Origin: Trueperaceae bacterium
Lineage (GTDB): Bacteria; Deinococcota; Deinococci; Deinococcales; Trueperaceae
DNA: 64,000 nt
Assembly: GCA_965213925.1 (NCBI GenBank)
Contig: OZ243927.1
Span: 3,424,001 to 3,488,000, forward strand
Direction: 5' to 3'
A program made the position numbers and the translations under genes. The notes under the pieces are model-generated. The model was given only the letters and a program-made list of their open reading frames with translations. It did no database searches and was not told where the DNA came from. Shown here in pieces: positions 363-63,490 of this stretch. Numbering within the stretch: position 1 is the first letter of the stretch; each line of letters starts with the position of its first letter.

Positions 363-388
363 AGTTACAGTCGCGCGCAACTCGCGCA
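363..388. repeat. GCGCGC-core dyad site 1 (left arm degenerate)
   Basis: agtt-acag-tc-GCGCGC-aa-ctcg-cgca; accessory dyad at 398-423. Confidence 0.7.
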
Positions 389-472
389 CAAAGCTTCTGC
401 CGCGAAAGGCCCGTAGAGTTGCACAAACCTTTCGGCGAAAGGACGTTTGTCGCAAACCCCGGTCAATAAGCC

Positions 473-1270
473 TCAGGCTTGTTGGCTGGGCGCGTTTTTG
501 CCTATAGCATCGAGCGGTAACATCTCGGTCAGACGCGCTGACTCGGTTAAACTGCTCTTGAGGTACTGTCTCCCCGCCAGGTAAACGAGCAGCCACTGCA
601 CCGACGCGAGGGCGTTGTAGATCATGTCGATGTTGTAAGACTCGGGCAAACGCACGTAAAATAGATCGGCGAGAAACCACGCGAGGGTCGCGCCGCTCAG
701 CAGTAAAAAGGGTCGGGTGAGGCGCAGCTCGGCGCGTGAGAACCAGAGCGCCGCCGCAGGCAACACCAGCAAGGCGCTGAAGTACGTTTTGGCGTTGTCC
801 GCGACCGATATACCTAATTCGAAGTCCAGGATGACGCCGAGCACCAACGCGACGACAAAGGTGACTGAGGAAACCAGTAAGATGAGCTGCGCGATAAGCT
901 CGATGAAGATCGCGCCTCTGAGCCGCCTATAGACGATAAAGATGGCGAGCGACAAGGCGTACGCCCACGGCGCGCATTCGAGCGTCCACAGTGTCGCGCC
1001 CGCTAGCTCTAGCGCGAGTGGCATCTCGCCCGTGACGCTCCCGTAGACCCAAGCCAAGTTTGCGAAGGCAGTGAGCAGCGCCGCGAACGAGAGCGCGTAG
1101 AGTCCGCGCTGCCAGCGCAGCCCCTGCGCCGCCTTGCCAAAACGAAAAAGCGCCAGGGAGCTCAGCGCCATGAGCAGCGTATAGCTCACCTCCCCGAAGA
1201 GCGAAGGTAACAGGCCAGCCATCACCAGAAGACAAAGACCGACAACTAATCCGTAAGCAGCGATCATCAC
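473..1270 (-). CDS. Multi-pass membrane protein, translationally coupled to the upstream GGDEF/EAL gene
   Basis: 265 aa with about 7-8 hydrophobic segments; ATGA overlap at 1267-1270. Confidence 0.7.
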   Translation of the reverse strand: MMIAAYGLVVGLCLLVMAGLLPSLFGEVSYTLLMALSSLALFRFGKAAQGLRWQRGLYALSFAALLTAFANLAWVYGSVTGEMPLALELAGATLWTLECAPWAYALSLAIFIVYRRLRGAIFIELIAQLILLVSSVTFVVALVLGVILDFELGISVADNAKTYFSALLVLPAAALWFSRAELRLTRPFLLLSGATLAWFLADLFYVRLPESYNIDMIYNALASVQWLLVYLAGRQYLKSSLTESARLTEMLPLDAIGKNAPSQQA

Positions 1271-4373: not shown

Positions 4374-4399
4374 TGCAGCTGTTGCGCGCGTTCGTGACC
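4374..4399. repeat. GCGCGC-core dyad site 2
   Basis: tgca-gctg-tt-GCGCGC-gt-tcgt-gacc. Confidence 0.75.
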
Positions 4400-4456
4400 T
4401 AAAAGAATCTCCTCCTTTTAACACACCAATCCATATGGTTGTGCTAGAATAGCCAC

Positions 4457-4891
4457 ATGGATGCATTTATTCCCCCTCCAGCACAATCGACGGGCGTTTT
4501 TCATACCTTAGGTCTCACAACCCGACCGCATGATCTAATCAAAGTGGTGAAAGGCGGTCTATCTGTTCAAGTCTTTCGCGTATTAGCCGAAACGCTGGGC
4601 GTCAGCGACGCGGTACTCGCGAATTTAGCAGGCATCAGCGGCACAACCTTGACCCGCCGCAAGCGCGCAGGGCAGCTGACACCCGACGAGAGTGAGCATG
4701 TGCTCAGGATTGCCAACCTACTAGAACGCGCAGCACAGGTGTTCGAAGACGTCGGTGACGCAGCGGAGTGGCTCAAAACGCCTAACCTCAGCCTCGGCAA
4801 CGTCACGCCGCTTAGCTATGCCGACACGGAAATAGGTGCCCGCGAGGTCGAGAACCTACTCGGTCGGATAGACTACGGCGTCTACAGTTAA
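4457..4891 (+). CDS. Xre/MbcA/ParS-family antitoxin
   Basis: HTH-like N-terminus, C-terminal AAEWLKTPNLSLGNVTPL...GAREVENLLGRIDYGVYS; directly upstream of a RES gene. Confidence 0.9.
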   Translation: MDAFIPPPAQSTGVFHTLGLTTRPHDLIKVVKGGLSVQVFRVLAETLGVSDAVLANLAGISGTTLTRRKRAGQLTPDESEHVLRIANLLERAAQVFEDVGDAAEWLKTPNLSLGNVTPLSYADTEIGAREVENLLGRIDYGVYS

Positions 4892-4917
4892 ATTGCCCTT
4901 CACCTTACGCAATATGT

Positions 4918-5403
4918 ATGGCTGACGTCCTCACAGCCTGGCGACTTGTCAGACCTAAATATGGCAACCAGGCTGATGCTTTTAGCGGTGAAGGTTCGCG
5001 TCTCTTCGGTGGGCGTTGGAACTCGCCGGGTGTGCGTGTTACTTACGTCAGCTCGAGTCTGTCGCTCGCCACACTAGAGACGCTCGTCCACGCGGACAGG
5101 CGGCGCTTCGAGCGAGACTACGTCGCCTTCAAGCTCTACCTACCTGAAGCGCTCGTGCTCGAGCTGCGCAGTGAGGATTTGCCCGAGGAGTGGCGGGCGA
5201 GGGCCGTGAGCGAGGGCGCGAGGCAAGTTGGAGATGCGTGGCAAGCGGCGCAGGCGAGTGTCGCCTTGTCTGTACCTAGCGTAATCGTGCCTGCGGAGCG
5301 GAACTATCTGCTCAACCCTAGACACCCGCAGTTCAGCGAGCTAACGATTGAAGACCCGCAACCTTTTCGCTTCGACGCACGGCTCGCTGACAAAGGACGA
5401 TAA
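4918..5403 (+). CDS. RES-domain toxin (NAD+-targeting family)
   Basis: AFSGEGSRLFGGRWNSPG, SLATLE, VPSVIVPAERNYLLNPRHP motifs. Confidence 0.9.
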   Translation: MADVLTAWRLVRPKYGNQADAFSGEGSRLFGGRWNSPGVRVTYVSSSLSLATLETLVHADRRRFERDYVAFKLYLPEALVLELRSEDLPEEWRARAVSEGARQVGDAWQAAQASVALSVPSVIVPAERNYLLNPRHPQFSELTIEDPQPFRFDARLADKGR

Positions 5404-5512
5404 AGTCATACTCGCGGCTTTTCATGATCGAGAAGGTACCGCAGTCGCAATGCGTGTGGTCGGGTAGCAGGAGACCGTCACTGGCCTCCCGCCCCTAAGA
5501 GCCGTGCGTGCG

Positions 5513-7948
5513 GTAGGGTAGGATGCCAGCGAGCTGCCTATCAAAGATAGCGCTTTTCCAACATCCCCCCTCCGAACCCCGCATGACCGCTTTCCGTGTC
5601 ACGGGGCTCTCCAGTAATCTCAACATGAAAGTCCTTTCCCGTGGTAGTGCCCTTTATGGATGTCTTGGTGGCAGGTGAGGCAGACCACCAGCGTCTTGCG
5701 TCGGCGAGCCGACATCCTTTGCATCCATTCGGGCCGTGACTTACGCCCTCTTTGTTCAAGGTCTGCCAGTTTTCGGACGTGATGCACTTCGACGTGCTCC
5801 ACCGACCCACAAAGCTCACAGCTTTGCGCTAAAAGGCGGTCCACCACTTCATTACGCCCGTTCCAAATCTTACTGTTCTGGTTGTCGTCCAAGGCTACCC
5901 ATTTGTTCCACCGTAACGGGATGCCGCCAAAGTGGGTGATGAGTGGCTTCTTTTTAGGACCACGGTCCACTTTGACTTGAAGGACTTTATAGCTGCCCTC
6001 CTTGAGGTCGATGGTGGTGCGGTAGCGCCGATAGATTTTCTGGCAACTCGTCCTGAACTTATTCGCCAGCGTTTTCACTAGCGAGAGTTCTGTGACGCGC
6101 TTGAGTCGGCCCAGCGTGTGGAGGTTGTAGGCCATGCGGTAATACTGCACGACCCCGCGGTATTCCGCTTGATATTGGCTGACGATGCTGTAAGCATCGC
6201 TGCTGAGCCTTTGTGGGAGGTGAATGGGCTTGCCGCGTCGCATGTACTTGGCGCAGTGCGCTTTCATGACGTGCGACGGTACCCGGAGTCCGACGCTGCC
6301 GTTGATGCAGCGTTGTCCCCGGTGGTCGTGTTTATCGTCAGCGTGAAGAATGTGGACCTCATAGCCCAGGAAACGCGCTTTCTGCGTGCGCGCGTGGGTC
6401 AGCAGGGTCTTATCCTCGCTAAGCTCAAGCTTGAGTTCGTCGCGTAAGAAGGCGGCAATCTCTTGCTTGATAGCCACGGCCTCGTCTTTTGGCCCTTTCA
6501 GCCCCAGCAGAAAGTCATCGGCATACCTTTGGTACCACAATCGCCGGAAGTTCGGGTCATCGGGGTCGCGCGACGGCATTGTCTGGGCCTGCTGGCTCAG
6601 TTGCCGCGCGGTCTCCCAGTTCCCTGCTTTCCGAGCGTCGTGAGCGGCTTTGGCGATGGCGACATACGGGGGGTAGGTCTTGCGGCGTTCGCCGCGTGTG
6701 TAAGCTGGTATCAGTTCGTGCTCGACAAACTTGTCCAGCCTGTCCAGAACCAGGTTGGTGAGGATTGGACCGACAATCGACCCTTGCGGCACACCGCTGT
6801 AGGTCTGGTGAAAGGTCCAGTTCTCCAGGTAGCCAGCTTCGAGCAGCCCCTTGATAAGCCGCAGGAAGCGGTTGTCGTGGAAGCTCTTCTGCAAGATGTT
6901 CAACAAGACATCGAAGTTAATCTTGTCGAAACACGAGCAGATATCTCCCTCGATAAACCACTTTGTACCTCGACCCTCTTGGGTGACTTTGCGCAAAGCT
7001 GTGTGGCATCCCCGTTTCGGTCGAAAGCCGTGAGAACGGTCGCTGAACCGCGGTTCATAATAGGCTTCCAGGATGGAGCGGATAACTTCTTGAAGAAGTT
7101 TGTCCGACCAGGAAGGCATCCCTAGAGGCCGCATCTTGCCATTCTTTTTGGGAATGTAACGGCGTCGTACCGGCGTCCACCGATACCGCTCTTGGCGTAG
7201 CGCCTCGATGATGGTATCAATTTTCGCTAGGGACATCCCGTCCACGGTTTCGTCCGAGGCACCTGGTGTCAGTGCGCCTTCGTTCTTGTAGAGCTTGGCG
7301 TAGGCGCGCAGGTAGAGGTCAGGCCGGTAGAGTAGGCGATACACCCTTTTAACCGGCAGGCCACGCTGGCCGCGTTCACGTAGGATGGTGAGTACCGTTT
7401 CGGCGGTTCGCATCTCGCGTACCTCACAGTTCCTTTCCATCATGATTACCTGGTCTCCTTCGCCCTGCGAACGGCTCTCCCGCTCTCCCTGGTGGGGCGT
7501 GACGCCCACGACTACTACGAGACCTCCGTTACCTTAGGACTCGCGTCCCTTAGGCAATCCCGTGTTTCGTCACTGAGGAACGTGCTAGAACGACTTAGGC
7601 TCGCCACTCATAGCCTTGGATGAACTCATTGTTCATCGCCCATCAAGCAGAGCGTCATTTGGACGAAACTTGAATCCAAATGTCCTGATGGCGTCGGTGT
7701 ACAGACGTGCTACCGACGGGTGTGCGTGACCACCGCTGGCTATTGGCGTTCAAACAATCCAGTCTTAGCCTTATCATTCAGGCGTTGCAGAGCCGCATCG
7801 TACACGTCTTCCTTTGCGCTCCGCTTTAATGCCATGCTCTTGTCCCCTCCCTCCTTTCGAGCTCAGGTTAGGCATCCGCCTCGGGGTCGTTTGCCCTGAA
7901 CCCCGGCCAACTCCGTTGGCAATTCACTCAATGCGCACCACGGCGCAC
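5513..7948 (-). mobile_element. Inner group II intron (LtrA/mitochondrial-like lineage) inserted in domain V of the outer intron
   Basis: 5' GTGCGCCGTGG at 7948; domain V GAGCCCCGTGACACGGAAAGCGGTCATGCGGGGTTC; 3' ...ATCCTACCCTAC at 5513. Confidence 0.9.
5620..7413 (-). CDS. ltrA: Group II intron reverse transcriptase/maturase with C-terminal HNH endonuclease
   Basis: RPLGMPSWSDK, WFIEGDI, GVPQGS, RYADDF, CELCG..EVHHV..CLTCHQDIH; ATG 7413 follows a GAGGT RBS (ORF track extends to 7509). Confidence 0.95.
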   Translation of the reverse strand: MRTAETVLTILRERGQRGLPVKRVYRLLYRPDLYLRAYAKLYKNEGALTPGASDETVDGMSLAKIDTIIEALRQERYRWTPVRRRYIPKKNGKMRPLGMPSWSDKLLQEVIRSILEAYYEPRFSDRSHGFRPKRGCHTALRKVTQEGRGTKWFIEGDICSCFDKINFDVLLNILQKSFHDNRFLRLIKGLLEAGYLENWTFHQTYSGVPQGSIVGPILTNLVLDRLDKFVEHELIPAYTRGERRKTYPPYVAIAKAAHDARKAGNWETARQLSQQAQTMPSRDPDDPNFRRLWYQRYADDFLLGLKGPKDEAVAIKQEIAAFLRDELKLELSEDKTLLTHARTQKARFLGYEVHILHADDKHDHRGQRCINGSVGLRVPSHVMKAHCAKYMRRGKPIHLPQRLSSDAYSIVSQYQAEYRGVVQYYRMAYNLHTLGRLKRVTELSLVKTLANKFRTSCQKIYRRYRTTIDLKEGSYKVLQVKVDRGPKKKPLITHFGGIPLRWNKWVALDDNQNSKIWNGRNEVVDRLLAQSCELCGSVEHVEVHHVRKLADLEQRGRKSRPEWMQRMSARRRKTLVVCLTCHQDIHKGHYHGKGLSC

Positions 7949-7983
7949 ACTTTCACCGCACACGGCTCAAGCCAATCACGAAG

Positions 7984-8118
7984 CTACCGCGATAAGCTCG
8001 TAGTAGCCCTGAAGATTCGCCCTCTCAGATTGCGAACCCGCCAATTGACAGCTCGCCAGTTCACAGCGTGCCAGTCCGTAGGTCCTTCGGTTTCGTTTGC
8101 AGAGCTTCGGGCTCGCAT
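7984..8118 (-). pseudogene. 44-aa remnant of the outer intron's RT ORF (N-terminal RVT_N-like segment)
   Basis: MRARSSANETEGPTDWHAVNWRAVNWRVRNLRGRIFRATTSLSR*; the W..(I/V).W....V..L..RI..A pattern of chloroplast-like IEP N-termini, located just before domain V. Confidence 0.75.
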
Positions 8119-9060
8119 CTAACTTCCCCTTAGTTGGCAACCTTCAGAACATCTCTCTAGGAGATTGACCAGTCCCACGTCAGCACCCTTTCGGGTTGAG
8201 TATCGGCTCTATCTAGCCCCTTATGATTTCGGGTCGCCTTTCGGCGGCTAGCCTTCGCTTCTTGGGACCTCCTATGCCCGCTGGAGCGTTCGGCGTTCCT
8301 TACGGTTCGCTTACCTGCAACAGGACTCCAACGGGGTTTCCGTGTTCCACTTGTGTGAGCTGCGACCGGGTTAGGCGTGCTCTCTACTCCGGGGTCATGG
8401 TGTCCTCGTGCAGAACGCGCGTACTCTCTGCACCTGTTGAGGCGAGATACCTTATCCTTAGCCTCGACCCGACCATGCCTTATCAACCATCCTTCGACAA
8501 ACCGAACTAACGGAGCTTTGACCGAGCATTCACGTTCGTTCGCCTTACCGGTCTTTCCCTCACCCGAGTCTCTACGATGGTTTAGATTCTCTTAGGCTTT
8601 ACCTCCAGCTTCACACCTTGCCATTACTGGCAACGCATGTGGAAGTCGGGAATGAGCCTGGACACTGGCTCAGAGTTCTTTTCCTCCTTCCTAACTCACT
8701 CACTTCAAGCGACTTCACGTCGCACACGCGCGCGTTAGTCGCACAATGGTTCGTGTGTTGAAAAAGGGTTAAGGGGAAGGTCGAATAACGATGTAATACG
8801 GCTTTCGGGTAACTCCCCTAGGGATTACCTCGAGCGTAGCGAGTAGAAAGAACTACGGATTTCAATGAGTGCGTTCGGACTTCGGTGAAACCCACTGCTC
8901 GTCACTTTGTGGTGTCATGTTGATAGAGCACATAAGAAGCTCAGCTGAGCGCTAGTTCGGCTACAAAGATACTTGTGGTTGTACTTAGCCACATGACGGT
9001 ATACTCTGGGCATCCAAGGTTTGAAGACAAGCCTAGTTCTTGCCGAGCGGAGGGAGTCCA

Positions 9061-13493: not shown

Positions 13494-13614
13494 AGTGCAG
13501 GTCATAGTTCCTAGCAGGTCCATATATCGACGGGAGCGACCTCGGCTACCAATTCTGTAGCTAGATATCGTCGATGTATGGGTAGTTTACGGGTCTTTCG
13601 CACCTTGAGCGTTA

Positions 13615-13640
13615 GGTCGGAGTTGCGCGCGTCCAACGCA
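13615..13640. repeat. GCGCGC-core dyad site 4
   Basis: ggtc-ggag-tt-GCGCGC-gt-ccaa-cgca; accessory dyad from 13580. Confidence 0.75.
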
Positions 13641-14609: not shown

Positions 14610-14635
14610 TACGTCAAACGCGCGCAACACGCGCC
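14610..14635. repeat. GCGCGC-core dyad site 5
   Basis: tacg-tcaa-ac-GCGCGC-aa-cacg-cgcc; accessory cgca at 14667-14670. Confidence 0.75.
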
Positions 14636-15838: not shown

Positions 15839-15859
15839 GCCTATTTAGCCCACCGTTCT

Positions 15860-16539: not shown

Positions 16540-16598
16540 AAATAGATATTAGGACTATCTTTAGGTGACCCTACAGGCCTTTCACATTGTAAGCGCTG

Positions 16599-16624
16599 TG
16601 CGTGTGATGCGCGCGTTCGTCGCA
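16599..16624. repeat. GCGCGC-core dyad site 6
   Basis: tgcg-tgtg-at-GCGCGC-gt-tcgt-cgca; accessory dyad from 16564. Confidence 0.85.
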
Positions 16625-20644: not shown

Positions 20645-20670
20645 TGCGCGTGTTGCGCGCGTTTGCCGCA
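20645..20670. repeat. GCGCGC-core dyad site 7
   Basis: (cttg)tgcg-cgtg-tt-GCGCGC-gt-ttgc-cgca(caag). Confidence 0.85.
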
Positions 20671-23160: not shown

Positions 23161-23186
23161 CGCGACGAACGCGCGCGTCTCCAGCA
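23161..23186. repeat. GCGCGC-core dyad site 8
   Basis: cgcg-acga-ac-GCGCGC-gt-ctcc-agca; accessory dyad ending at 23221. Confidence 0.8.
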
Positions 23187-25125: not shown

Positions 25126-25151
25126 TGCGAGAGATGCGCGCAACTCACGCG
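25126..25151. repeat. GCGCGC-core dyad site 9
   Basis: tgcg-agag-at-GCGCGC-aa-ctca-cgcg; contains the TGA stop of the 25145-25870 gene. Confidence 0.8.
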
Positions 25152-27976: not shown

Positions 27977-28002
27977 TGCGACGAACGCGCGCGTTCGCCG
28001 CA
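27977..28002. repeat. GCGCGC-core dyad site 10
   Basis: (cttc)tgcg-acga-ac-GCGCGC-gt-tcgc-cgca(gaag). Confidence 0.88.
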
Positions 28003-31940: not shown

Positions 31941-32001
31941 AACCCCTAAAATGAAGTGAGCTTTTGTGCGTGTGAACGGGCCGAGGCTCGCCTGAGGCTT
32001 T

Positions 32002-32027
32002 CGCAAGAGATGCGCGCAACTCGCGCA
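32002..32027. repeat. GCGCGC-core dyad site 11
   Basis: cgca-agag-at-GCGCGC-aa-ctcg-cgca; accessory dyad at 31967-31992. Confidence 0.82.
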
Positions 32028-35822: not shown

Positions 35823-35848
35823 TGCGAGAGATGCGCGCGTCTGTTGCA
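35823..35848. repeat. GCGCGC-core dyad site 12
   Basis: tgcg-agag-at-GCGCGC-gt-ctgt-tgca(gaag). Confidence 0.85.
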
Positions 35849-37576: not shown

Positions 37577-37602
37577 TGCGCGAGTTGCGCGCAACTGTGT
37601 CC
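37577..37602. repeat. GCGCGC-core dyad site 13
   Basis: (cttc)tgcg-cgag-tt-GCGCGC-aa-ctgt-gtcc. Confidence 0.8.
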
Positions 37603-38350: not shown

Positions 38351-38420
38351 GGCACCGCCTGGAATCGGTATTCAGCTAAGTACCGGGGCAGAGTTCGGGC
38401 GGAGATTTGCATAGACTTCG

Positions 38421-38446
38421 TGCGTGTGATGCGCGCGTCTCTCGCA
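38421..38446. repeat. GCGCGC-core dyad site 14
   Basis: tgcg-tgtg-at-GCGCGC-gt-ctct-cgca(gaag); accessory dyad at 38386-38411. Confidence 0.88.
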
Positions 38447-39821: not shown

Positions 39822-39847
39822 TGCGCTTAACGCGCGCGTTTGTTGCA
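39822..39847. repeat. GCGCGC-core dyad site 15
   Basis: (cttc)tgcg-ctta-ac-GCGCGC-gt-ttgt-tgca(gaa). Confidence 0.85.
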
Positions 39848-48679: not shown

Positions 48680-48748
48680 TACATAGATACTGCTTTACCT
48701 TCTTTACAATACAAACGTATTTCTATATATCGAGTTAGGAGGGAGATT

Positions 48749-49753: not shown

Positions 49754-50300
49754 TACGCTGGTTGGCACAAAACGTGGCGCTAGGCGATTTTCTTTGCTCC
49801 AAACAGCCTTGGTTGCTCAAAATGACTTAGAGAAAATAAGCTCGGAAGGGGCAAGGCGGCGCGCATCTCGGTAAACGACCGTTTTTGCAATCTGTTCAGC
49901 GTCTGGCTGTGACTGGTTAAACCACCTACGCTCATTGCAACCGAGTTTCACTGTCAGATTTATCGTCTAATTCTATCCACAGGGCAGGTCGAATACCGCC
50001 ACTATCTTTAGGTCTGCCATAGACACCATCGCCACGAACATAAATACGTCCGTATCTATTTACACTGGCAGCAGTGCGACCATAATAGCCTGGTGAGCGA
50101 AGTCGCCACCAATAGAATTTACTTTATCTTCTTTAGTGACCCCGACGGCAACAGTTAGGCAGTGCAGCAAATCTCGAGCCGCAGTTGAACGAGGTAATTT
50201 TTATACGTGTGAACAGGCCGAGGCGTGCGTAAGTCTTCTGCGTGTGGTCGGGTAGCAGGAGACCGTCACTGGCCTCCCGCCCCTAAGAGCCGTGCGTGCG

Positions 50301-52736
50301 GTAGGGTAGGATGCCAGCGAGCTGCCTATCAAAGATAGCGCTTTTCCAACATCCCCCCTCCGAACCCCGCATGACCGCTTTCCGTGTCACGGGGCTCTCC
50401 AGTAATCTCAACATGAAAGTCCTTTCCCGTGGTAGTGCCCTTTATGGATGTCTTGGTGGCAGGTGAGGCAGACCACCAGCGTCTTGCGTCGGCGAGCCGA
50501 CATCCTTTGCATCCATTCGGGCCGTGACTTACGCCCTCTTTGTTCAAGGTCTGCCAGTTTTCGGACGTGATGCACTTCGACGTGCTCCACCGACCCACAA
50601 AGCTCACAGCTTTGCGCTAAAAGGCGGTCCACCACTTCATTACGCCCGTTCCAAATCTTACTGTTCTGGTTGTCGTCCAAGGCTACCCATTTGTTCCACC
50701 GTAACGGGATGCCGCCAAAGTGGGTGATGAGTGGCTTCTTTTTAGGACCACGGTCCACTTTGACTTGAAGGACTTTATAGCTGCCCTCCTTGAGGTCGAT
50801 GGTGGTGCGGTAGCGCCGATAGATTTTCTGGCAACTCGTCCTGAACTTATTCGCCAGCGTTTTCACTAGCGAGAGTTCTGTGACGCGCTTGAGTCGGCCC
50901 AGCGTGTGGAGGTTGTAGGCCATGCGGTAATACTGCACGACCCCGCGGTATTCCGCTTGATATTGGCTGACGATGCTGTAAGCATCGCTGCTGAGCCTTT
51001 GTGGGAGGTGAATGGGCTTGCCGCGTCGCATGTACTTGGCGCAGTGCGCTTTCATGACGTGCGACGGTACCCGGAGTCCGACGCTGCCGTTGATGCAGCG
51101 TTGTCCCCGGTGGTCGTGTTTATCGTCAGCGTGAAGAATGTGGACCTCATAGCCCAGGAAACGCGCTTTCTGCGTGCGCGCGTGGGTCAGCAGGGTCTTA
51201 TCCTCGCTAAGCTCAAGCTTGAGTTCGTCGCGTAAGAAGGCGGCAATCTCTTGCTTGATAGCCACGGCCTCGTCTTTTGGCCCTTTCAGCCCCAGCAGAA
51301 AGTCATCGGCATACCTTTGGTACCACAATCGCCGGAAGTTCGGGTCATCGGGGTCGCGCGACGGCATTGTCTGGGCCTGCTGGCTCAGTTGCCGCGCGGT
51401 CTCCCAGTTCCCTGCTTTCCGAGCGTCGTGAGCGGCTTTGGCGATGGCGACATACGGGGGGTAGGTCTTGCGGCGTTCGCCGCGTGTGTAAGCTGGTATC
51501 AGTTCGTGCTCGACAAACTTGTCCAGCCTGTCCAGAACCAGGTTGGTGAGGATTGGACCGACAATCGACCCTTGCGGCACACCGCTGTAGGTCTGGTGAA
51601 AGGTCCAGTTCTCCAGGTAGCCAGCTTCGAGCAGCCCCTTGATAAGCCGCAGGAAGCGGTTGTCGTGGAAGCTCTTCTGCAAGATGTTCAACAAGACATC
51701 GAAGTTAATCTTGTCGAAACACGAGCAGATATCTCCCTCGATAAACCACTTTGTACCTCGACCCTCTTGGGTGACTTTGCGCAAAGCTGTGTGGCATCCC
51801 CGTTTCGGTCGAAAGCCGTGAGAACGGTCGCTGAACCGCGGTTCATAATAGGCTTCCAGGATGGAGCGGATAACTTCTTGAAGAAGTTTGTCCGACCAGG
51901 AAGGCATCCCTAGAGGCCGCATCTTGCCATTCTTTTTGGGAATGTAACGGCGTCGTACCGGCGTCCACCGATACCGCTCTTGGCGTAGCGCCTCGATGAT
52001 GGTATCAATTTTCGCTAGGGACATCCCGTCCACGGTTTCGTCCGAGGCACCTGGTGTCAGTGCGCCTTCGTTCTTGTAGAGCTTGGCGTAGGCGCGCAGG
52101 TAGAGGTCAGGCCGGTAGAGTAGGCGATACACCCTTTTAACCGGCAGGCCACGCTGGCCGCGTTCACGTAGGATGGTGAGTACCGTTTCGGCGGTTCGCA
52201 TCTCGCGTACCTCACAGTTCCTTTCCATCATGATTACCTGGTCTCCTTCGCCCTGCGAACGGCTCTCCCGCTCTCCCTGGTGGGGCGTGACGCCCACGAC
52301 TACTACGAGACCTCCGTTACCTTAGGACTCGCGTCCCTTAGGCAATCCCGTGTTTCGTCACTGAGGAACGTGCTAGAACGACTTAGGCTCGCCACTCATA
52401 GCCTTGGATGAACTCATTGTTCATCGCCCATCAAGCAGAGCGTCATTTGGACGAAACTTGAATCCAAATGTCCTGATGGCGTCGGTGTACAGACGTGCTA
52501 CCGACGGGTGTGCGTGACCACCGCTGGCTATTGGCGTTCAAACAATCCAGTCTTAGCCTTATCATTCAGGCGTTGCAGAGCCGCATCGTACACGTCTTCC
52601 TTTGCGCTCCGCTTTAATGCCATGCTCTTGTCCCCTCCCTCCTTTCGAGCTCAGGTTAGGCATCCGCCTCGGGGTCGTTTGCCCTGAACCCCGGCCAACT
52701 CCGTTGGCAATTCACTCAATGCGCACCACGGCGCAC
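50301..52736 (-). mobile_element. Inner group II intron, copy 2
   Basis: Same boundaries within domain V of the outer intron. Confidence 0.9.
50408..52201 (-). CDS. ltrA: Group II intron RT/maturase/HNH, copy 2
   Basis: Protein identical to 5620-7413. Confidence 0.95.
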   Translation of the reverse strand: MRTAETVLTILRERGQRGLPVKRVYRLLYRPDLYLRAYAKLYKNEGALTPGASDETVDGMSLAKIDTIIEALRQERYRWTPVRRRYIPKKNGKMRPLGMPSWSDKLLQEVIRSILEAYYEPRFSDRSHGFRPKRGCHTALRKVTQEGRGTKWFIEGDICSCFDKINFDVLLNILQKSFHDNRFLRLIKGLLEAGYLENWTFHQTYSGVPQGSIVGPILTNLVLDRLDKFVEHELIPAYTRGERRKTYPPYVAIAKAAHDARKAGNWETARQLSQQAQTMPSRDPDDPNFRRLWYQRYADDFLLGLKGPKDEAVAIKQEIAAFLRDELKLELSEDKTLLTHARTQKARFLGYEVHILHADDKHDHRGQRCINGSVGLRVPSHVMKAHCAKYMRRGKPIHLPQRLSSDAYSIVSQYQAEYRGVVQYYRMAYNLHTLGRLKRVTELSLVKTLANKFRTSCQKIYRRYRTTIDLKEGSYKVLQVKVDRGPKKKPLITHFGGIPLRWNKWVALDDNQNSKIWNGRNEVVDRLLAQSCELCGSVEHVEVHHVRKLADLEQRGRKSRPEWMQRMSARRRKTLVVCLTCHQDIHKGHYHGKGLSC

Positions 52737-52771
52737 ACTTTCACCGCACACGGCTCAAGCCAATCACGAAG

Positions 52772-52906
52772 CTACCGCGATAAGCTCGTAGTAGCCCTGA
52801 AGATTCGCCCTCTCAGATTGCGAACCCGCCAATTGACAGCTCGCCAGTTCACAGCGTGCCAGTCCGTAGGTCCTTCGGTTTCGTTTGCAGAGCTTCGGGC
52901 TCGCAT
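52772..52906 (-). pseudogene. 44-aa remnant of the outer intron's RT ORF, copy 2
   Basis: Same as 7984-8118. Confidence 0.75.
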
Positions 52907-53699
52907 CTAACTTCCCCTTAGTTGGCAACCTTCAGAACATCTCTCTAGGAGATTGACCAGTCCCACGTCAGCACCCTTTCGGGTTGAGTATCGGCTCTAT
53001 CTAGCCCCTTATGATTTCGGGTCGCCTTTCGGCGGCTAGCCTTCGCTTCTTGGGACCTCCTATGCCCGCTGGAGCGTTCGGCGTTCCTTACGGTTCGCTT
53101 ACCTGCAACAGGACTCCAACGGGGTTTCCGTGTTCCACTTGTGTGAGCTGCGACCGGGTTAGGCGTGCTCTCTACTCCGGGGTCATGGTGTCCTCGTGCA
53201 GAACGCGCGTACTCTCTGCACCTGTTGAGGCGAGATACCTTATCCTTAGCCTCGACCCGACCATGCCTTATCAACCATCCTTCGACAAACCGAACTAACG
53301 GAGCTTTGACCGAGCATTCACGTTCGTTCGCCTTACCGGTCTTTCCCTCACCCGAGTCTCTACGATGGTTTAGATTCTCTTAGGCTTTACCTCCAGCTTC
53401 ACACCTTGCCATTACTGGCAACGCATGTGGAAGTCGGGAATGAGCCTGGACACTGGCTCAGAGTTCTTTTCCTCCTTCCTAACTCACTCACTTCAAGCGA
53501 CTTCACGTCGCACACGCGCGCGTTAGTCGCAGCAGGATAGAGATTCTAAATGTCCGGAGAGCAACCCCTTTCCAAAAGAAAAGCCGTAGAAAATATCGAA
53601 CAAAGCTGAGCTTCAACGCGCCTTAGAAATCGGAAAACTATGAAAAATTTCCTCAAAGTCAAAGTGCTTCTTTTTACCCTTCACCACCAACAACTTCAA

Positions 53700-53990: not shown

Positions 53991-54005
53991 AAGGAAACAG
54001 AAACT

Positions 54006-54731: not shown

Positions 54732-54847
54732 CCCTACTCATTCCTACATACCCCTTTCCACGTACTTAGCGCCGCCGAGTTCGTCGGGGGAAGCGACCTG
54801 CGGCGCGCATGTGACTTCAAGCCCTCTCGCCTACCCTTGGAGGTACC

Positions 54848-56506: not shown

Positions 56507-56509
56507 GCG

Positions 56510-57310
56510 ATGAAGACGCTTGTCAAAACACTCGTTATTGTTGCGATGGGGTTTGGTCTCATCACGCTTCTACTCGAGACTGAGCCAGAAGAGACGGCGG
56601 TGCGCTCAGCGGACCAGACGATCTTGAGCCGACATTCACGTGGACTCGTCGCCGCGTGGCCGCTAGAGGACGAAAGCGTGCAGACCTCAGCGGTAGAGGC
56701 CGTGCACCCCACCGCTGGCAACTACCTGGTCATCTTCGACGGCTCGGGCAGCATGAAGGGCGCGAAGCTGCGCGACGCCAAAGACGCCGTCGCGATTTTA
56801 AGTGAGACCGTGCCTGAAAGCGACCACCTCGGGCTTATCGCCTTCACGGACGAAGGGCTTTTTGGCAGCGACAGCGTAGAACTCCTCACGCCGCTAGGTC
56901 GCGGCGCGGCGAACCGCGCCGCCTTTAAGGAGGCGCTAGAACGCATCGAAGCGGGCGGGGGGACGCCTTTGGGTGAAGCCCTCGAGCTAGGCGTCACCAC
57001 GCTCTCGCGGATGGCGCAGACGCAGCGCACGTTGGGCGCACACTACACGCTCCTCATCGTCACCGACGGCGAGGCGAGTGACGGTGAAAGGTTGCGGCGG
57101 GTACTCGCGCAGATGCTTCCAGCCGACGCGCCGCCGCGCTCGCCCATCGTCTTCCAGACCGTCGGCTTCGGTATCGACGAGCGGCACGTCCTCAACCAGC
57201 CGGGGCGCACGCTCTACGCCTCTGCGCGGGACGGCGCGGCGCTACGTGAAGCGCTTAGGCGCGTCGCCGTCGAGGAGCAGAACTTTGCCGCGGACACGCA
57301 ATTTCAGTGA
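56510..57310 (+). CDS. Membrane-anchored VWA-domain protein
   Basis: MIDAS motif DGSGSM, GGTPL, VTDGE. Confidence 0.88.
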   Translation: MKTLVKTLVIVAMGFGLITLLLETEPEETAVRSADQTILSRHSRGLVAAWPLEDESVQTSAVEAVHPTAGNYLVIFDGSGSMKGAKLRDAKDAVAILSETVPESDHLGLIAFTDEGLFGSDSVELLTPLGRGAANRAAFKEALERIEAGGGTPLGEALELGVTTLSRMAQTQRTLGAHYTLLIVTDGEASDGERLRRVLAQMLPADAPPRSPIVFQTVGFGIDERHVLNQPGRTLYASARDGAALREALRRVAVEEQNFAADTQFQ

Positions 57311-57574
57311 AGCAATTCGCCCAAGTACTGATAGCACTTCCAAGATGTACTGAGACAAATGAGCGCAGGTATCATCCCGGAACGTGCGTGCTGAACTGTG
57401 TTTTCTACAGTGAGAGTGTTGCTTCGCATAACTTCGTTCACTCAAACCAGATGATACCTGCTATGAGTTGGAATAGCGCAAGTCTCATTTTCAAGCGTAT
57501 GTGCTTAGCAGTGTTCCATTCAGTGAGCGCGTTCCAAACCAAATGATACTTGCTACGAAGGAGGCGAAGAAACC

Positions 57575-59113
57575 GTGAGACGCACCACCCCTCTTCTCCT
57601 TGGGCTTTTCGCCCTCTTCGCCTTAGGTGCGCTGCTGACTAAAATGCTCGGACCGACCCTCGCCCACTCGCGCTGGCTGAGCGGGAGCGACGCGCAAGGG
57701 CTCGAGCGGGTGACCGTCGCCTGCGACCCCTACTTCGCGTACGGGGCGCTCTTTGGCGATACGAACCGCGCCCTGCTGCGGGCTCGTGGGTACAGCTTAG
57801 AATGCGACAACGACAATGCCGACTACGCCGCGCGAAGTGCCGCGTTATCCGAAGGTCGCGTGCCCTCCGCCGTCTTTACGAGAGGCGCGTATGTCCAGGT
57901 CGGCGGACCCGCCTGGGACGCGGTCGAGGTTGCCGTGTTGAGCGAATCGCGAGGGAGTGACGCGCTCGTCGGGCGCGGCGAGTTGAACACCCTCGCGGCG
58001 TTGCAAGGGGCGCTCTCGAGCGGCAAACCGCTCAACATCGCAGTCACGCCCGCTTCGCCCTCCTGGACACTCCTTAAAACGGTGGAGAACACCTTCGGTC
58101 TCGAGCTTAACGACGCCAACATCGTCTTCGCGGAAGGCTCGAGTGACGCCTACGAGAGGTTGGCACGCGGCGAGGTCGGCGCTGCCGTCCTCTGGCAACC
58201 CGACCTGGCGCAGGCGTTCAAAGACCCGGGCGTCCACGAACTCATCAGCACCGCCGACACGCGCAACCTGGTCGTAGACATCCTCTTGGTCAACCGCAGC
58301 TTCGCCCAGCGCCGCCCCGAGGTGGTCGCGGCGGTGGTTGAAAGTTTCTACGAGACGCTCGAGCTGTACCGCCAAGACACCGCCTTGCTCGTTCGCGACG
58401 TTCGGCGCTTTAGCCGCACCTTCGGACACCGCCTCTCGGACGATGAGGTGCGCACGATGCTTGCAGGCGTAGACTTTCAATCTTTAGCGGACAACGCCCT
58501 GACCTGGTACGGCGTCGCCGACAACGACAAAGGGCTGCGCACTTACGCCGCCGCCGAGAGCTACCGCTACTTAGAACGCACCTTTGTGGACGTCGGTGTG
58601 TTGGCGCAGCCCGTTCTACCCGCTGCCGGAGGTGACGCGCTCACAAGCAGCCGCTTCGTCGCTCAGGCGGCGCAGGGCAAACCGCTGGCGCAGCGCCAGG
58701 CGACCTCGTTTGCGGCGCTTGCGGGAGATGAATGGGCAGCGCTGGAGGTCGTCGGTACGCTTCGGGCGAGACCTATCGGCTTCAGCGCGTCGCGCTCAGA
58801 CCTCTCGAGTCGGGGCAAACGCGCCCTCGCTGAGGTCGCCGCCGACCTCTCGGCTTTTGGCAGCTTCCGGCTGCTCATCGAGGGACACACGAACGCGGTG
58901 GGCGACGCAGAGCGCAACCTCGCCCTGTCGCGTGCCCGCGCACAGGCGATTGCCGACTACCTCGCTGAGCGCCACGCGGTCGACCCCGCTCGCTTACACG
59001 TCGTCGGCTATGGAGGTGCAAAGCCGCTCCCGTGTCCGCCCGGAGACTCTGCCCGCGCCTGCGCCTCGCGTCAGCAGCGCAGCGTCCTCACCTTTTTGAG
59101 CCCCGACCTATGA
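57575..59113 (+). CDS. Substrate-binding domain plus OmpA-family peptidoglycan-binding domain
   Basis: SESRGSDAL, VLWQPD, IEGHTNAVG..NLALSRARAQAI..VGYG. Confidence 0.8.
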   Translation: MRRTTPLLLGLFALFALGALLTKMLGPTLAHSRWLSGSDAQGLERVTVACDPYFAYGALFGDTNRALLRARGYSLECDNDNADYAARSAALSEGRVPSAVFTRGAYVQVGGPAWDAVEVAVLSESRGSDALVGRGELNTLAALQGALSSGKPLNIAVTPASPSWTLLKTVENTFGLELNDANIVFAEGSSDAYERLARGEVGAAVLWQPDLAQAFKDPGVHELISTADTRNLVVDILLVNRSFAQRRPEVVAAVVESFYETLELYRQDTALLVRDVRRFSRTFGHRLSDDEVRTMLAGVDFQSLADNALTWYGVADNDKGLRTYAAAESYRYLERTFVDVGVLAQPVLPAAGGDALTSSRFVAQAAQGKPLAQRQATSFAALAGDEWAALEVVGTLRARPIGFSASRSDLSSRGKRALAEVAADLSAFGSFRLLIEGHTNAVGDAERNLALSRARAQAIADYLAERHAVDPARLHVVGYGGAKPLPCPPGDSARACASRQQRSVLTFLSPDL

Positions 59114-59123
59114 GCCGCAACTT

Positions 59124-59894
59124 ATGAGCCGCAGCAGCAAATTCAGTTATGGGCGTCTGCGCCGCGAAACGCTCAGCCGCGACGTGCTGCAAGACCCGCT
59201 GGGGCTCGGAGGTCTACTGAGCAGCGCGGCGTCTCTCGTCGTCAGCGCACTCTGGACTAGCCCGCTCGCGTTAGTGGTCGGCGCAGCTCTCGGCGGGCTC
59301 GCGCTGGTACGGTTTCTCGTCCTCTATATTCGCCGGAATGAACTCGTCGAGCGGCGCTTACATGCCCACTTCGAGGAAGAGAAGCGGCTTAGCGAGCGGG
59401 AGAACGCGGAGACGTTGGACGCACTCCAGCGCAGCTTGAACGCCTTAGCGCCGGAGAACGCCCGGCAGCTTGAACGGCTCGAGGAGGCGTTCTCCGCCCT
59501 GTCGCGGGTGGTCGAACAGCGCTTCCCGGCCGGCAGCCTCTCAGCAGAGCGCTACTTAGGTGGCATCTTAGAGACTCGGCGCGTCGTGCTTCACAATCTG
59601 CACCAGGTGACGCGCTATCTGCAAGCCGCGCAGGTTACAACAACCAATCACGAGCGCGTACACGAAGAAAAAGAGGTGCTTTTAGAAGAGGTGACGCGCT
59701 TCACTGAGCAAAACGAGCTGCTTATCGGTGAGCTGCACGCGCTGAGGCTCAAACTGGTGCGCGTGCCCCTCGCCGGGTCGCACGCCCCGCTGAGCACGCT
59801 GGATGCACCGTCAGACGAAGAGGTCAGCAGGCGCTTGGACCAGCTCGCCCAAACAACTGAGCGCATGGTCACAGAATTGCGGAGACATCCGTGA
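59124..59894 (+). CDS. 2-TM coiled-coil protein upstream of the TelA-family gene
   Basis: Two TM segments then a long helical region. Confidence 0.65.
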   Translation: MSRSSKFSYGRLRRETLSRDVLQDPLGLGGLLSSAASLVVSALWTSPLALVVGAALGGLALVRFLVLYIRRNELVERRLHAHFEEEKRLSERENAETLDALQRSLNALAPENARQLERLEEAFSALSRVVEQRFPAGSLSAERYLGGILETRRVVLHNLHQVTRYLQAAQVTTTNHERVHEEKEVLLEEVTRFTEQNELLIGELHALRLKLVRVPLAGSHAPLSTLDAPSDEEVSRRLDQLAQTTERMVTELRRHP

Positions 59895-60005
59895 AGACCG
59901 CTCGAGTTTTCATATCGAGTCTCTCCGCGGTGGATTTTGCAGCGGATGTAGACGCAGTGCGACCTTTTATCACCACAAACTCCAACCGTAAAGAAAGGAC
60001 ACCCC

Positions 60006-61238
60006 ATGCCCGACTCCCTCCAGCCCCCGCAAGTTGAGATGTTAGAGCCTCCTAAGCCCGTTCAGCCCGTCGAGAAAGCGCACGCCGAGAGGATGATTCG
60101 CCTAAATGAGGTGACGCAAAGCGTGTTGGACGAGAAAGTCCGGGGCTTTGTCGAGAGCGTCATCAGCTCGCCGCCGCAGAGTGACGCCTTCCAGAGCAAG
60201 GTCGCCGCAGTCCACAACCTCGGCAACGAGGACATACGCGCCGCCTCCTCAGTCTCCAACCGCTTTTTGGAGCGCCCGGCGAGCGCACTTTCGGGCGGGC
60301 TCGACAGCAAGTCGAAGGTCTCCAAGACGCTCATCGACCTGCGTAAGACCGTCGAAGACCTAGACCCCTCGAAGCAGGGTGACCTGTTCGCGCCCAAAAA
60401 GCTCTTTGGTCTCATCCCGGTGGGGAGTAATATTCGCGACTACTTCCTCAAGTACCAGTCCTCGCAGCAACACTTGGGCCAGATTTTGACCTCGCTCTAT
60501 AACGGTCAAGACGAGCTGCGCAAGGACAACGCGACTATCGAGCAGGAGAAGGTCAATTTGTGGGAAGCGATGGAGAAGTTGGAGTCGTATATCTATCTGG
60601 CGCGGAAAGTGGACGAAGCGCTCTTAGCACGTGCGGACAAACTCAAGCGCACCGAGCCCGAAAAAGCCCGCGTGGTTGAAGAGGAGATGCTCTTTTACTT
60701 GCGGCAGAAAGTGCAGGACTTACAGACGCAGCTCGCCGTCTCTATTCAGGGCTATCTAGCGCTCGACATGGTCCGCAAGAACAACTTAGAACTCATCAAG
60801 GGTGTGGACCGCGCCTCGACCACGACGGTGTCGGCGCTGCGCACGGCGGTCATGGTCTCGCAGGGACTGGCAAATCAGAAGCTCGTCTTGGACCAGATAG
60901 ACGCGCTTAACGCGACTACAGGCAATCTCATCGCGTCCACCTCGGCGCTCTTGAGAAAGCAATCCTCGAGCGTACATACGCAGGCGGCTGGAGCGACCGT
61001 GGATGTCGAGCAACTCCAGAAGGCTTTCAATAATGTTTACGCAGCGGTGGACGCGATTTCTGAATACAAGCAGGCAGCTCTAGGCGTGATGCAGCAAACC
61101 GTAGACACGCTCGAAGCGGAGATTGGCAAGTCGAAGACGTATCTGGACCGGGTACGCAATGAGCAGGTGGCGGGGGCGACAGCGGATTTGACGCTCGAGG
61201 TTCCAGACAACGCAGCGGATAACGAACTTAGGCTTTAA
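60006..61238 (+). CDS. Toxic anion resistance protein (TelA family)
   Basis: LRKTVEDLDPS, YQSSQ, QDELRKDN, RKNNLELIKGVDRASTTTVSALRTAV. Confidence 0.9.
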   Translation: MPDSLQPPQVEMLEPPKPVQPVEKAHAERMIRLNEVTQSVLDEKVRGFVESVISSPPQSDAFQSKVAAVHNLGNEDIRAASSVSNRFLERPASALSGGLDSKSKVSKTLIDLRKTVEDLDPSKQGDLFAPKKLFGLIPVGSNIRDYFLKYQSSQQHLGQILTSLYNGQDELRKDNATIEQEKVNLWEAMEKLESYIYLARKVDEALLARADKLKRTEPEKARVVEEEMLFYLRQKVQDLQTQLAVSIQGYLALDMVRKNNLELIKGVDRASTTTVSALRTAVMVSQGLANQKLVLDQIDALNATTGNLIASTSALLRKQSSSVHTQAAGATVDVEQLQKAFNNVYAAVDAISEYKQAALGVMQQTVDTLEAEIGKSKTYLDRVRNEQVAGATADLTLEVPDNAADNELRL

Positions 61239-61393
61239 GGTTTGACAGAGAGATGAGGGTAAGGGGGATAGGGAGAAAAAGCGTTGCCGCCTCTCCCTTT
61301 TCCCTGTCCTTTCAGAAGATACAGTGCAACGCCTTCTTTCTAACTCTCGCGCTCACATCACTTTTAACGAGCTGCGGATAGGAAACAAACACC

Positions 61394-61597
61394 ATGCGCG
61401 TCTTGGCAGGCTCCGAACTCAAGGATTTGGAACCGCTTCTTAGCGACACCAAACGCGAAACGAGGGTGGCGCTCGAGCTTCCCGATAACGAGATGAAAGA
61501 GTCCGTTCAGAACTTTAGCCGTAAGAATACAGATAAGCGCTTGTCGCACGTCAGATTTCGGAGGAGAAATTTGGGAGGAGAAATTTGGGAGGAATGA
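61394..61597 (+). pseudogene. Fragment of a solute-binding/VWA protein typical of TelA loci
   Basis: RVLAGSELKDLEPLL, then degenerate. Confidence 0.45.
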
Positions 61598-61709
61598 CCT
61601 ATTCGTGCAGTAAACTTCTATGACAATATGTACTGAACGGTCAATAGATTGTGGTTCCTTTGATCTCTGCGGAATAACTGCGTATTTCAGCCTAATTTGA
61701 CTATTGATT

Positions 61710-63401
61710 GGCTCTTACGAAAGTTGTGTGGTCAGGCAGCCAGCAGCACCTTTTGCCTGAGCAGGTCAAAGCTAGCGCGTCCATACATCTGCCGCTTGAG
61801 CAACTTGAGCTTAGTAATTTTACCCTCGGTCGGTCCATTGCTCCACGGCAGAGTTAATGCCACTTCGATAGCCGCCTTATCGTTGCTGAAACCTTTCGCC
61901 AAGCGAGCGAGTTCATCAACGCCGCTCGCTCTTTATGGTGTCGCTGAGCCAGCGTTGAAACGCCGCTATAGTTTCATGGGGTGCTCGTTCCTTGCACCTG
62001 AATAGCGCGACGAAGCGTTGCACCAGGTCGTAGCAACGCTCCGCTTCTTGCGCACCCTCGAAGAGCCGCTCGAGTCGTTTGAAATCGTGCTGAGTTAGCG
62101 CCCCTTTTGAGCTTGTAAATAAGCGCGTCGCCTCATACGCCGAATAACGCATGACCCTTTGTCTCTTGTCTGCCCTCGAAAAGTCAATGCCCGCTTCCAA
62201 CTCGGCAAAGTAGGCGTAGACGAGACCATAAGCACCGGTGAAGCCCCGCGCCGTGATCTCCCGGTAGAGCTGCATCTTGTTGCCGATGCCCGCATCCCAT
62301 CTTTGTTTGAGATAGGGTTCGTAGGGCGCTAAGATGCGATTTTTCTGTCTATCAGGATACGTACCCCGAGCAAACCAACGGCTCAGCGTGCTCCTGCCGA
62401 CACCGAGCTTGGCAGCAATCTTAGGAAGACTAAAGCCGTCCGCTTCTAAACGCTTGGCTTCTTCGAAGATGGCTCGGCGTTTGCGGCGCGTCTCGAGCTT
62501 CGCTTGCAGCGCCCTTTCGTAGCTGGTGCGGACGTGAATCTGCTGAGGCACATCGCCGCCAGATTCGTGTCCATCATCAGAAAGCTCAACCAGATACTTT
62601 TTATGGCGCTCGCACCAGCGTTTCAAGAGGTCGCTGAAGTTTTTGAGCAGATGCCAACGGTCGGCGACCTGAACCGCTTGGGGTGCGCCCTCGTCGCAAG
62701 CGGATTTGTATTCCTGAGAGCGATCGCGAGAGATGGTTTCGACGCTAGGATGCGCCTTTAGCCAGTCCACCAGGGTTGCTGAGCTTCTGTCGGGTAGAAC
62801 GTCGACCACTTCGCGTTTTTCCAGGTCAAGCAACAGGGTGCCGTAACTTTCCCGTTTCCGAATAGCAAAATCGTCCACACCCAGCACGCGCGGTGTTGCT
62901 CGTGTCACTAAGCTCTGGGTTCGGACAAGGTCGAGCGCGCTATCGTGGCTCACAGGCATCTCTAACTGTCCGAGCAGGTCTTCGCTCGCTTTAGCGCTTA
63001 GAGAGGTCGCCACACGACGTTGCGCGTCGCTCAAGCGTTTGCTTCTATGTGCGTAACGCGCCAGCCAGGGGTCGAAAGACTCTGCGAACGTTCTTCTCTC
63101 ACAGCAACGATTTAAGCAGTAGAACCGTTTGTCTTTGAGACGCAACTGAACTGTGTGATCAGCCAGGGGCAAATCAGCAGGATGGCGTTGGTAGTAACCA
63201 CTTACCTTGTTTGATAGCGCCTGGCAGAGCGGACAATTCGCCTCCGTTTTACGTGAGCCGTGAGCACCAAACCACCTTCGCGAACTTTGAACGCTTCGAT
63301 GACACACGCTGGAAACAGGATATCGAGCATCCTTCATGCTGTTCGCTAGCCCTTCAAGATGCAAGACCCAACCCAGTTCCCACAATTCTTTCGTAAGAGC
63401 C
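61710..63401 (-). mobile_element. ISL3-family insertion sequence (degenerate)
   Basis: Terminal inverted repeats GGCTCTTACGAAAG at 61710 and 63401. Confidence 0.85.
61732..63330 (-). pseudogene. ISL3 transposase with frameshifts near 63250 and 61925
   Basis: CPLC, VLGVDDFA, QVADRWHL, WSNGPTEG..TKLKLLKRQMYGRA. Confidence 0.85.
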
Positions 63402-63464
63402 ATCAAGTGCCCAAATTAGATGGTATACGCAATAATGGAAAGGCTCGGGTGCGTAGCGTCCTTG

Positions 63465-63490
63465 TGCAACGAACGCGCGCGTTAAACGCA
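63465..63490. repeat. GCGCGC-core dyad site 17
   Basis: (cttg)tgca-acga-ac-GCGCGC-gt-taaa-cgca(gaag). Confidence 0.85.

Follow-up and report, generated by a model that had tools for sequence, protein, structure and literature searches.

In Cre/loxP-type recombination and with the archaeal XerA, one enzyme acts on a site of about 34 bp in which a short spacer separates two symmetric arms, the spacer of the Cre/loxP-type geometry determining orientation and partner choice, and one or two such sites resolve replicons; dif sites have a 6-bp centre. We analysed a stretch of 64,000 nucleotides (hereafter the window) from the genome of a Trueperaceae bacterium (assembly GCA_965213925.1, contig OZ243927.1, forward-strand positions 3,424,001 to 3,488,000; in our labels G000:C1:3424001-3488000, G000 being the source genome, C1 its main contig and C2-C6 its smaller contigs). 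A dyad of this general geometry, conserved over about 14-6-14 bp, recurs in the window, and instead of one or two sites resolving a replicon the genome has about 90 degenerate sites bounding cargo. From sequence comparison, these dyads are quite probably where crossover takes place in a gene-cassette system that depends on one simple Xer-like tyrosine recombinase, whose gene is itself a cassette.

The closest described relatives in organization are the pdif (dif) modules of Acinetobacter. The available portions of two reports (10.1101/2022.01.12.475240; PMC12907356) describe accessory modules, often a toxin-antitoxin pair or an enzyme with its regulator, that lie between short dyad sites in multi-module arrays, also on chromosomes, with identical modules in several contexts and parasites that target the sites; the present system is alike in each of these respects, and its dyad-bounded modules with a short central region likewise recur in several contexts. 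The pdif sites, according to the same portions, resemble host dif and use host XerC and XerD, whereas here a module carries the single candidate enzyme, the two arms appear to share a consensus, and the hosts belong to the Trueperaceae and Bacillota. Our XerC/D comparison covered the Trueperaceae, in which host XerC/XerD were not found.

Integrons and the orphan arrays known as CALINs, as far as the accessible text of PMC9024848 describes them, share with our system cassette arrays and a tyrosine recombinase, and the Bacillota arrays described below also consist mostly of cassettes with one small co-oriented gene. However, the candidate enzyme has no IntI insertion, there is neither a hairpin-conserved attC nor an integrase with an attI platform at the array head, and the recombinase is cargo. 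The Trueperaceae modules are moreover larger (median 2.1 kb), include regulators and face both ways, so that co-oriented cassettes are a feature of the Bacillota arrays alone. The system works like pdif modules and integrons and departs from both in the defining features that were compared.

All 19 coordinates at which the original prediction had placed a 26-bp dyad were verified, and correspond to 15 intact sites and two that are interrupted by identical 3,267-bp inserts (5451-5458/8726-8743 and 50239-50246/53514-53531). The strict TGCR...YGCA consensus proposed for them is followed in full by 7 of the 15 intact sites; the GCGCGC core is kept in the other 8 as well, with one or both arms degenerate. 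In the whole genome, 41 strict matches were found, and none with the reversed pattern as a control. We built a position weight matrix (PWM) on the 17 window sites and symmetrised it, as Trueperaceae sites cannot be oriented. Its counts on C1 are bimodal, with few intermediate scores (87 matches at 18 bits or more, 93 at 14 or more and 109 at 10 or more); C6 has two matches, and the 128-kb C2 and C3-C5 have none. The C1 sites fall into ten groups (three of them single sites) that together span 320 kb, and 69 of 85 gaps are shorter than 10 kb when 14.7 are expected (maximum 26 in 2,000 random placements). Clustering of the motif, as opposed to even spread, had been proposed as a test of its role, and the sites pass it. 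Only 7 of 86 cores lie inside mechanically called open reading frames (ORFs) of at least 150 aa, though such ORFs cover 78% of the groups, and sites adjoin both 5' and 3' gene ends. Repetitive extragenic palindromic (REP) and REPIN elements are dispersed intergenic repeats that form hairpins; here the sites are clustered and an average hairpin excess is absent.

We compared 178 sites, including those in 400 kb of two genomes of the same genus (G001 and G002) that were picked for containing sites. Wherever two site ends had homologous inner 130 bp, the DNA across the core was unrelated (81 of 81 pairs, not fully independent since some modules are present three or more times), with identity of about 0.8 inside and about 0.25 outside. 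For example, module 38421-39847 is 97% identical in G001 with both ends at most 3 bp from the site centres, module 20645-23186 is 96% identical in G002 with sites at both ends, and module 14610-16624 is present in G001 and ends at sites. Module 37577-38446 recurs at C1:896486-897355 and in G002 with new neighbours each time; 16599-20516 is present in another genus (G055), starting at a site; and one contig from a read run of a different study (X1) departs from the window at 37586, the core edge. Of 39 pairs whose flanks are 97% identical, 22 agree fully in the module-side arm and 3 in the far arm, and the base adjoining the core goes with the module (0.90 vs 0.56). Of the 178 sites, 160 have the exact core, while the 356 arms comprise 145 types, and arm-to-arm mismatches within a site (3.99) are those of randomly drawn arms (4.05 +/- 0.11). 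Such random-like pairing of arms around an exact core fits crossover within a 6-bp overlap on double-stranded DNA. It had also been remarked earlier that the NNN positions of the two arms are usually non-complementary and suit a double-stranded site. By this comparison, modules swap neighbours exactly at the 6-bp core, usually keeping their own arm, and the dyads are exchange points of modules. The prediction that homology breakpoints would coincide with the core is confirmed, and the proposal that the dyads are crossover sites gains support.

As had been noted, the window encodes no recombinase: a Pfam scan of its 61 ORFs returned neither a tyrosine nor a serine recombinase. In G000 there are ten PF00589 matches, and the best two are paralogues 89% identical (C1:883816-884679 and 3232342-3233202, outside the window). 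The array ends had been suggested as the place to look for a recombinase; the candidate tyrosine recombinase found is instead placed inside modules of other arrays. Each copy lies between two sites beside a toxin-antitoxin-like pair, the first in the middle of a group (between sites 883697 and 885389) and the second between sites 3228847 and 3233296, and eight of the ten site groups, including that of the window, are without a copy. The protein (288-296 aa; PF02899/PF13495 and PF00589 in the 288-aa protein) has the core-binding and catalytic domains of a simple tyrosine recombinase, no arm-binding domain, and intact catalytic residues (R136, K160, H235, R238, H261 and Y270, invariant in 40 homologues). 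Its structure model (pLDDT 88) has XerA, IntI4 and XerD as best fold matches (top 5hxy, 4a8e). It scores 207 and 200 bits against the XerC and XerD families, whose NCBIfam cut-offs are 335 and 330, stays below the XerA cut-off too, and reaches 112 bits against a cut-off of 265 for TIGR02249 (IntI). The two catalytic-domain insertions of IntI1 are absent from the Bacillota proteins, and the Trueperaceae protein matches them by a 9-aa insert only.

A GCGCGC site lies within 1.5 kb of all 7 recombinase copies in G000, G001, G002 and G005, and of 0 of 45 other tyrosine-recombinase loci from these four genomes, G054 and G055. Among 128 genomes of the family, the gene (at least 63% identity) is present in 7, the strict motif in 9 and both in 6; a further genome, G143, has the gene with relaxed sites. 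Weaker split homologues in G008 and G077 have no site in the 35 kb fetched. Across the phylum, 5 of 251 genomes carry the gene, all of them Trueperaceae. In the tree, whose root is insecure, the Trueperaceae recombinases form a single clade (100/100) nested among Bacillota proteins, which suggests transfer from Bacillota to Trueperaceae; as the branches of IntI1 and the outgroup are very long, the tree does not give the family's place among other recombinases. Relatives 36-44% identical also occur on 22 plasmids (H1-H22), mostly of Bacillota.

Other enzymes were considered. The other short tyrosine recombinase of the genome (L003/L004) was rejected as the cognate enzyme, being present in G000 only, and it scores below the candidate against XerC/D. 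The resemblance of the arms to a XerC arm had suggested a host XerC, a lead that found no support: no XerC/D above the NCBIfam cut-offs was found in G000, and the Xer-like protein had no match at E<=1e-30 in 119 of the 128 family genomes. A chromosomal dif site was not located, the GC skew being without a clear terminus. Serine invertases of the hix type have a linked serine recombinase and a 2-bp crossover core. In G000, two resolvase-family matches were found; one of them contains a stop codon and lies about 1.8 kb from a site. Conservation of all six core bases (160 of 178) fits a 6-bp overlap better than a 2-bp serine-type core, and the serine-invertase lead likewise found no support in G000.

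We then considered the Bacillota counterpart. A genome scan gave 558 stretches encoding relatives of the recombinase, of which the best 80 were taken; 74 of these loci (L062-L135; recombinase 40-47% identical) form the Bacillota set. With a seed pattern modelled in part on repeats of this kind, we found related dyads in 63 of the 74 loci, with 474 sites in 1.16 Mb and 0 in shuffled DNA. The arm consensus resembles that of the Trueperaceae and the arms of the oriented matrix are near mirror images; the core, however, is asymmetric (GGGTGC type). Of 280 pairs of neighbouring sites, 255 share their polarity; among the 227 intervals that hold an ORF, the longest one is co-oriented in 182; and the median site spacing is 967 bp. 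Trueperaceae modules, in contrast, change strand in 55 of 113 successive steps, in line with the predicted freedom of orientation at a symmetric core. Shared module ends with unrelated neighbours amount to 120 one-sided pairs spanning 101 locus pairs, and core polarity is conserved in 158 of 171 pairs of homologous module ends. A set of 64 pairs apparently homologous on both sides was discarded: a recount without the polarity filter gave 96, all within one locus and an artefact of tandem-site overlap. A site lies directly upstream of the recombinase gene in 30 of the 74 loci, about 100-200 bp from it, and directly downstream in 34. Upstream of the gene in L066, L072, L089 and L095, the sites have an apparent 7-bp core. 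Most of 66 cassette ORFs from four arrays have no Pfam match; the rest include GNAT, NUDIX, DinB and immunity proteins. No site was found in 11 of the 74 loci, among them a separate homologue clade, nor at threshold in the closer loci from Sulfobacillus, Symbiobacteriaceae and Alicyclobacillus.

Arm binding, two-site synapsis, staggered cuts and circular intermediates are general tyrosine-recombinase chemistry. In the mechanism that we propose, each arm, about 14 bp long if the CTTC extension is counted, would bind one recombinase monomer, two sites would pair, and strands would be cut on either side of the 6-bp core and swapped via a Holliday junction. A module would leave as a circle with one site and re-enter at any other site with the same core, in either orientation where the core is palindromic and in a single orientation at the asymmetric Bacillota core. 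There would be no fixed attI-type platform, modules would bring their own regulators, and arrays would persist as orphans after loss or breakage of the recombinase cassette.

Several observations weigh against this reading, and some of them favour other explanations. The sites could be true recombination sites on which another enzyme acts, a host Xer-type protein or another integrase, the linked gene being frequent cargo. Many genomes indeed have sites and no recombinase gene: G054 (7 strict sites) and G055 (3 strict sites), each 98% complete, and G082 (1 site; 80% complete) in the Trueperaceae, and, among 121 genomes from the order of G309, 75 have the site and only 22 the gene (E<=1e-70). 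With G309 excluded, sites occur in 16 of 21 gene-bearing and 58 of 99 gene-less genomes (Fisher p 0.15); mean site numbers are 3.2 with the gene and 1.5 without (Mann-Whitney p 0.016; the genomes are not independent). Several recombinase genes in this order contain stops, and loss of the enzyme cassette would therefore account for the orphan arrays, as proposed for CALINs. Of the 6 motif-bearing genomes tested, 5 contain one family of long integrases (about 380-430 aa), and a dyad with a GGCCCG core lies near four other integrase loci (see below). Nevertheless, none of the 45 other loci has a nearby GCGCGC site, the Xer-like protein goes unmatched in most of the family, the other short recombinase is confined to G000, and gene and site co-occur in two phyla while a sister homologue group lacks the site; we consider action by another enzyme unlikely.

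It would be very surprising, in turn, if the dyad were mainly an operator or REP-like repeat at which modules are exchanged by short-homology recombination. Its position upstream of many Bacillota recombinase genes would suit an operator, and some arms are swapped beyond the core: 9 of the 39 near-identical pairs have 3-4 differences in the module-side arm, and crossover within the core does not explain these. Against this stand the restriction of the sites to ten groups, their position at both gene ends, the drop in identity across every one of the 81 pairs, the exact core between variable arms and the conserved polarity of Bacillota cores. Recombination through a single-stranded hairpin, as for integron attC or HUH/Y1 transposase ends, seems to us barely credible. 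Perfect palindromes number 10 where 2.9 are expected, a threefold excess that is also a difficulty for the cassette model, the site itself is a dyad, and group II introns target it as they do attC; yet on average the arms pair no better than at random, the IntI insertion is missing from the enzyme, and 14 nt of direct pairing with the target account for the choice of the intron. Double-stranded crossover by the carried recombinase, which we favour, has difficulties of its own. No circle or inversion junction was found over window positions 20300-40200 in the assembled (Logan) contigs of four runs, two of which (X1 and X2) contained only 13% and 9% of sampled words and two (X4 and X5) are possibly the source sample. 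The model gives no account of what keeps about 90 symmetric sites from scrambling the chromosome, and leaves unexplained how new cargo gains sites and how arms are swapped. Separately, an apparent skip of 31988-35823 was rejected as evidence of excision, its 27-nt side being merely a site.

Taken together, we lean towards a third, independently evolved cassette system beside integrons and pdif, with platform-free arrays and a self-carried Xer-like recombinase, common in Bacillales and transferred to Trueperaceae, where the core would have become palindromic and orientation control lost; it would also have an accessory dyad of a second type and its own site-seeking intron, and it seems not yet described. 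The available text of PMC8138268, which sorts simple tyrosine recombinases into 14 subgroups, lists no such cassette system, and its main text as available has no match to 'Bacillus' or 'Firmicutes'. No description was found in the open literature; subscription journals and supplements lay outside this search, and an earlier report is possible. The accessible part of PMC9024848 gives integrons as extremely rare in Firmicutes, nearly absent in Bacillota, yet the present site is found in 75 of the 121 sampled genomes of one order. If our reading holds, it would name the machinery behind a large set of small accessory genes in these bacteria and give a motif to find them. The symmetric and asymmetric versions are a natural test of core control over orientation, and the enzyme, one protein of 290 aa for which many arm variants are acceptable, could serve as a new tool for site-specific recombination.

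The features of the window are as follows.

363..388: site 1, GCGCGC core with a degenerate left arm
398..423 (+): accessory dyad at 35 bp from site 1; core GGCCCG, asymmetric
4374..4399: site 2; Xre-RES toxin-antitoxin pair in module 4374-5458
5451..5458: left part of the intron-split site 3
5459..8725 (-): group II twintron in site 3; its outer intron (831 nt) has no ORF
5513..7948 (-): inner group II intron, 2,436 nt, in domain V of the outer; reverse transcriptase (RT)-maturase-HNH ORF at 5620-7509
8726..8743: site 3, right part; module to 13615 with a 976-aa ORF and patatin
13580..13605 (-): degenerate accessory dyad
13615..13640: site 4; next module with HNH and an RHH-like gene
14610..14635: site 5; module to 16599 with aldo-keto reductase and PRT
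16564..16589 (-): degenerate accessory dyad
16599..16624: site 6; module to 20645 with MarR, hydrolase, TspO and ABC
20645..20670: site 7; module to 23161
23161..23186: site 8; module with QOR and HxlR
25126..25151: site 9, containing the stop codon of ORF 25145-25870 (-); module with MFS and MarR
27977..28002: site 10, with AT-rich DNA and a module encoding subtilase beyond it
31967..31992 (-): GGCCCG-core accessory dyad at 35 bp from site 11
32002..32027: site 11; module with DUF5996, glyoxalase-hydrolase and AraC
35823..35848: site 12; module with Crp and hydrolase
37577..37602: site 13; single-gene module to 38421
38386..38411 (-): weak accessory dyad
38421..38446: site 14; module with EVE, VOC and MarR
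39822..39847: site 15; no strong site in the next 10.4 kb
50239..50246: left part of the intron-split site 16
50247..53513 (-): second twintron, identical in sequence to the first and inserted at the same register
53514..53531: site 16, right part, followed by a module with the TelA operon
61916..63406 (-): ISL3-family transposase, a passenger inside the last module
63465..63490: site 17, whose group spans C1:3399712-3490216 with 26 PWM matches

The module contents given in the original prediction stand with two corrections: the supposed diguanylate cyclase/phosphodiesterase (DGC/PDE) pair is one GGDEF-EAL protein and an ORF without Pfam match, and the HNH pair is one HNH protein and a weak RHH match. 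Its remarks on composition (GC 0.425 to the left of site 1, 0.421 to the right of site 10) and on a stop codon inside site 9 proved accurate. Module 8726-13615 has a 97% identical copy in G001 that terminates at the core of site 3. At 9040-13493 within it, the 976-aa ORF, without Pfam or PADLOC match, overlaps the patatin gene, and the pair, likewise 97% identical in G001, is a possible candidate defence module; PADLOC on 14 window proteins returned generic HNH and subtilase matches only. Two intervals of about 10 kb each, 39822-50239 and 53514-63465, have no strong site. The first (39848-50238) holds at least 13 small genes (WYL, TetR, AsnC, DinB, hydrolases), has no counterpart in the 400 kb of G001 and G002, and is either an eroded array or a single large module.

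A second dyad lies 35 bp centre to centre from the main one in 29 of 354 site ends (control frequency 0.0002), and five such accessory dyads are in the window. Its core is asymmetric, of the GGCCCG type, and directed away from the main site. Modules with one such end number 22 of 142, and one module has two; the dyad is mostly at the 3' end of a gene (23 of 28). In other genera the GGCCCG-type dyad is mostly solitary. In Bacillota, tandem sites are spaced by 33-68 bp, and in 40 of 43 such pairs the main core comes first. The accessory dyad may be an accessory binding site or a relic of an ancestral polar site. GGCCCG-core dyads were also observed near other integrase genes at L189, L195, L223 and L225 (G054, G005), at L195 and L223 directly upstream of frames of about 405-410 aa; these are possibly a second cassette type or an array-seeding element.

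Both 3,267-bp inserts have group II intron termini and the same insertion base of the site. Each is a twintron in which the RT-maturase-HNH intron is nested in domain V of the ORF-less outer intron, and an Rfam gathering search of the window returned intron matches only. G002 has a partial outer intron without the nested one. The exon-binding sites EBS1/EBS2 of the outer intron, one of them in a stem-loop, match the final 14 nt of the 5' exon by exact complementarity, and 20 of the 23 C1 targets within one mismatch of EBS are sites; the site choice of the intron is explained by this direct pairing with the intron-binding sequence (EBS-IBS). No EBS match was found for the target of the inner intron. 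Two further truncated copies in the genome also end at an arm remnant. The available text of PMC7923331 describes group II introns inserted in integron attC sites, which likewise land on a repeated cassette site; here, in contrast, the intron that pairs with 14 nt is an ORF-less outer one, and an RT-HNH intron is nested inside it. Intron relatives in G059 (46% identity) were rejected as site-targeting, as they are not in such sites. The ISL3 element at 61916-63406 is 100% identical over 1,171 bp to a copy at G000:C1:2669031-2670201 that truncates a fourth intron copy.

Further observations concern the surroundings of the arrays. The small contigs C3-C5 have no match of at least 200 bp elsewhere in G000. 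C6 (15.9 kb) is a patchwork of modules 75-93% identical to C1 modules and not an excised copy; it could come from another strain or be an extrachromosomal array. Its site at C6:11212 is flanked on both sides by accessory dyads. Long integrases, two directly after tRNA genes, and a broken resolvase lie about 2-40 kb from array edges (G000:C1:2630107, 2888131, 3374223 and 4516002), and the arrays may ride on larger islands. In the group of the window, a 460-aa primary-type sigma-70 gene (regions 1.2, 2, 3 and 4; L180:12266-13645, G000:C1 about 3400.3-3401.6 kb) forms a cassette between sites 3399712 and 3402167. A fragmented IS3-like element with short dispersed repeats (L175:9207-10699) recurs by array edges in G001 and G002.

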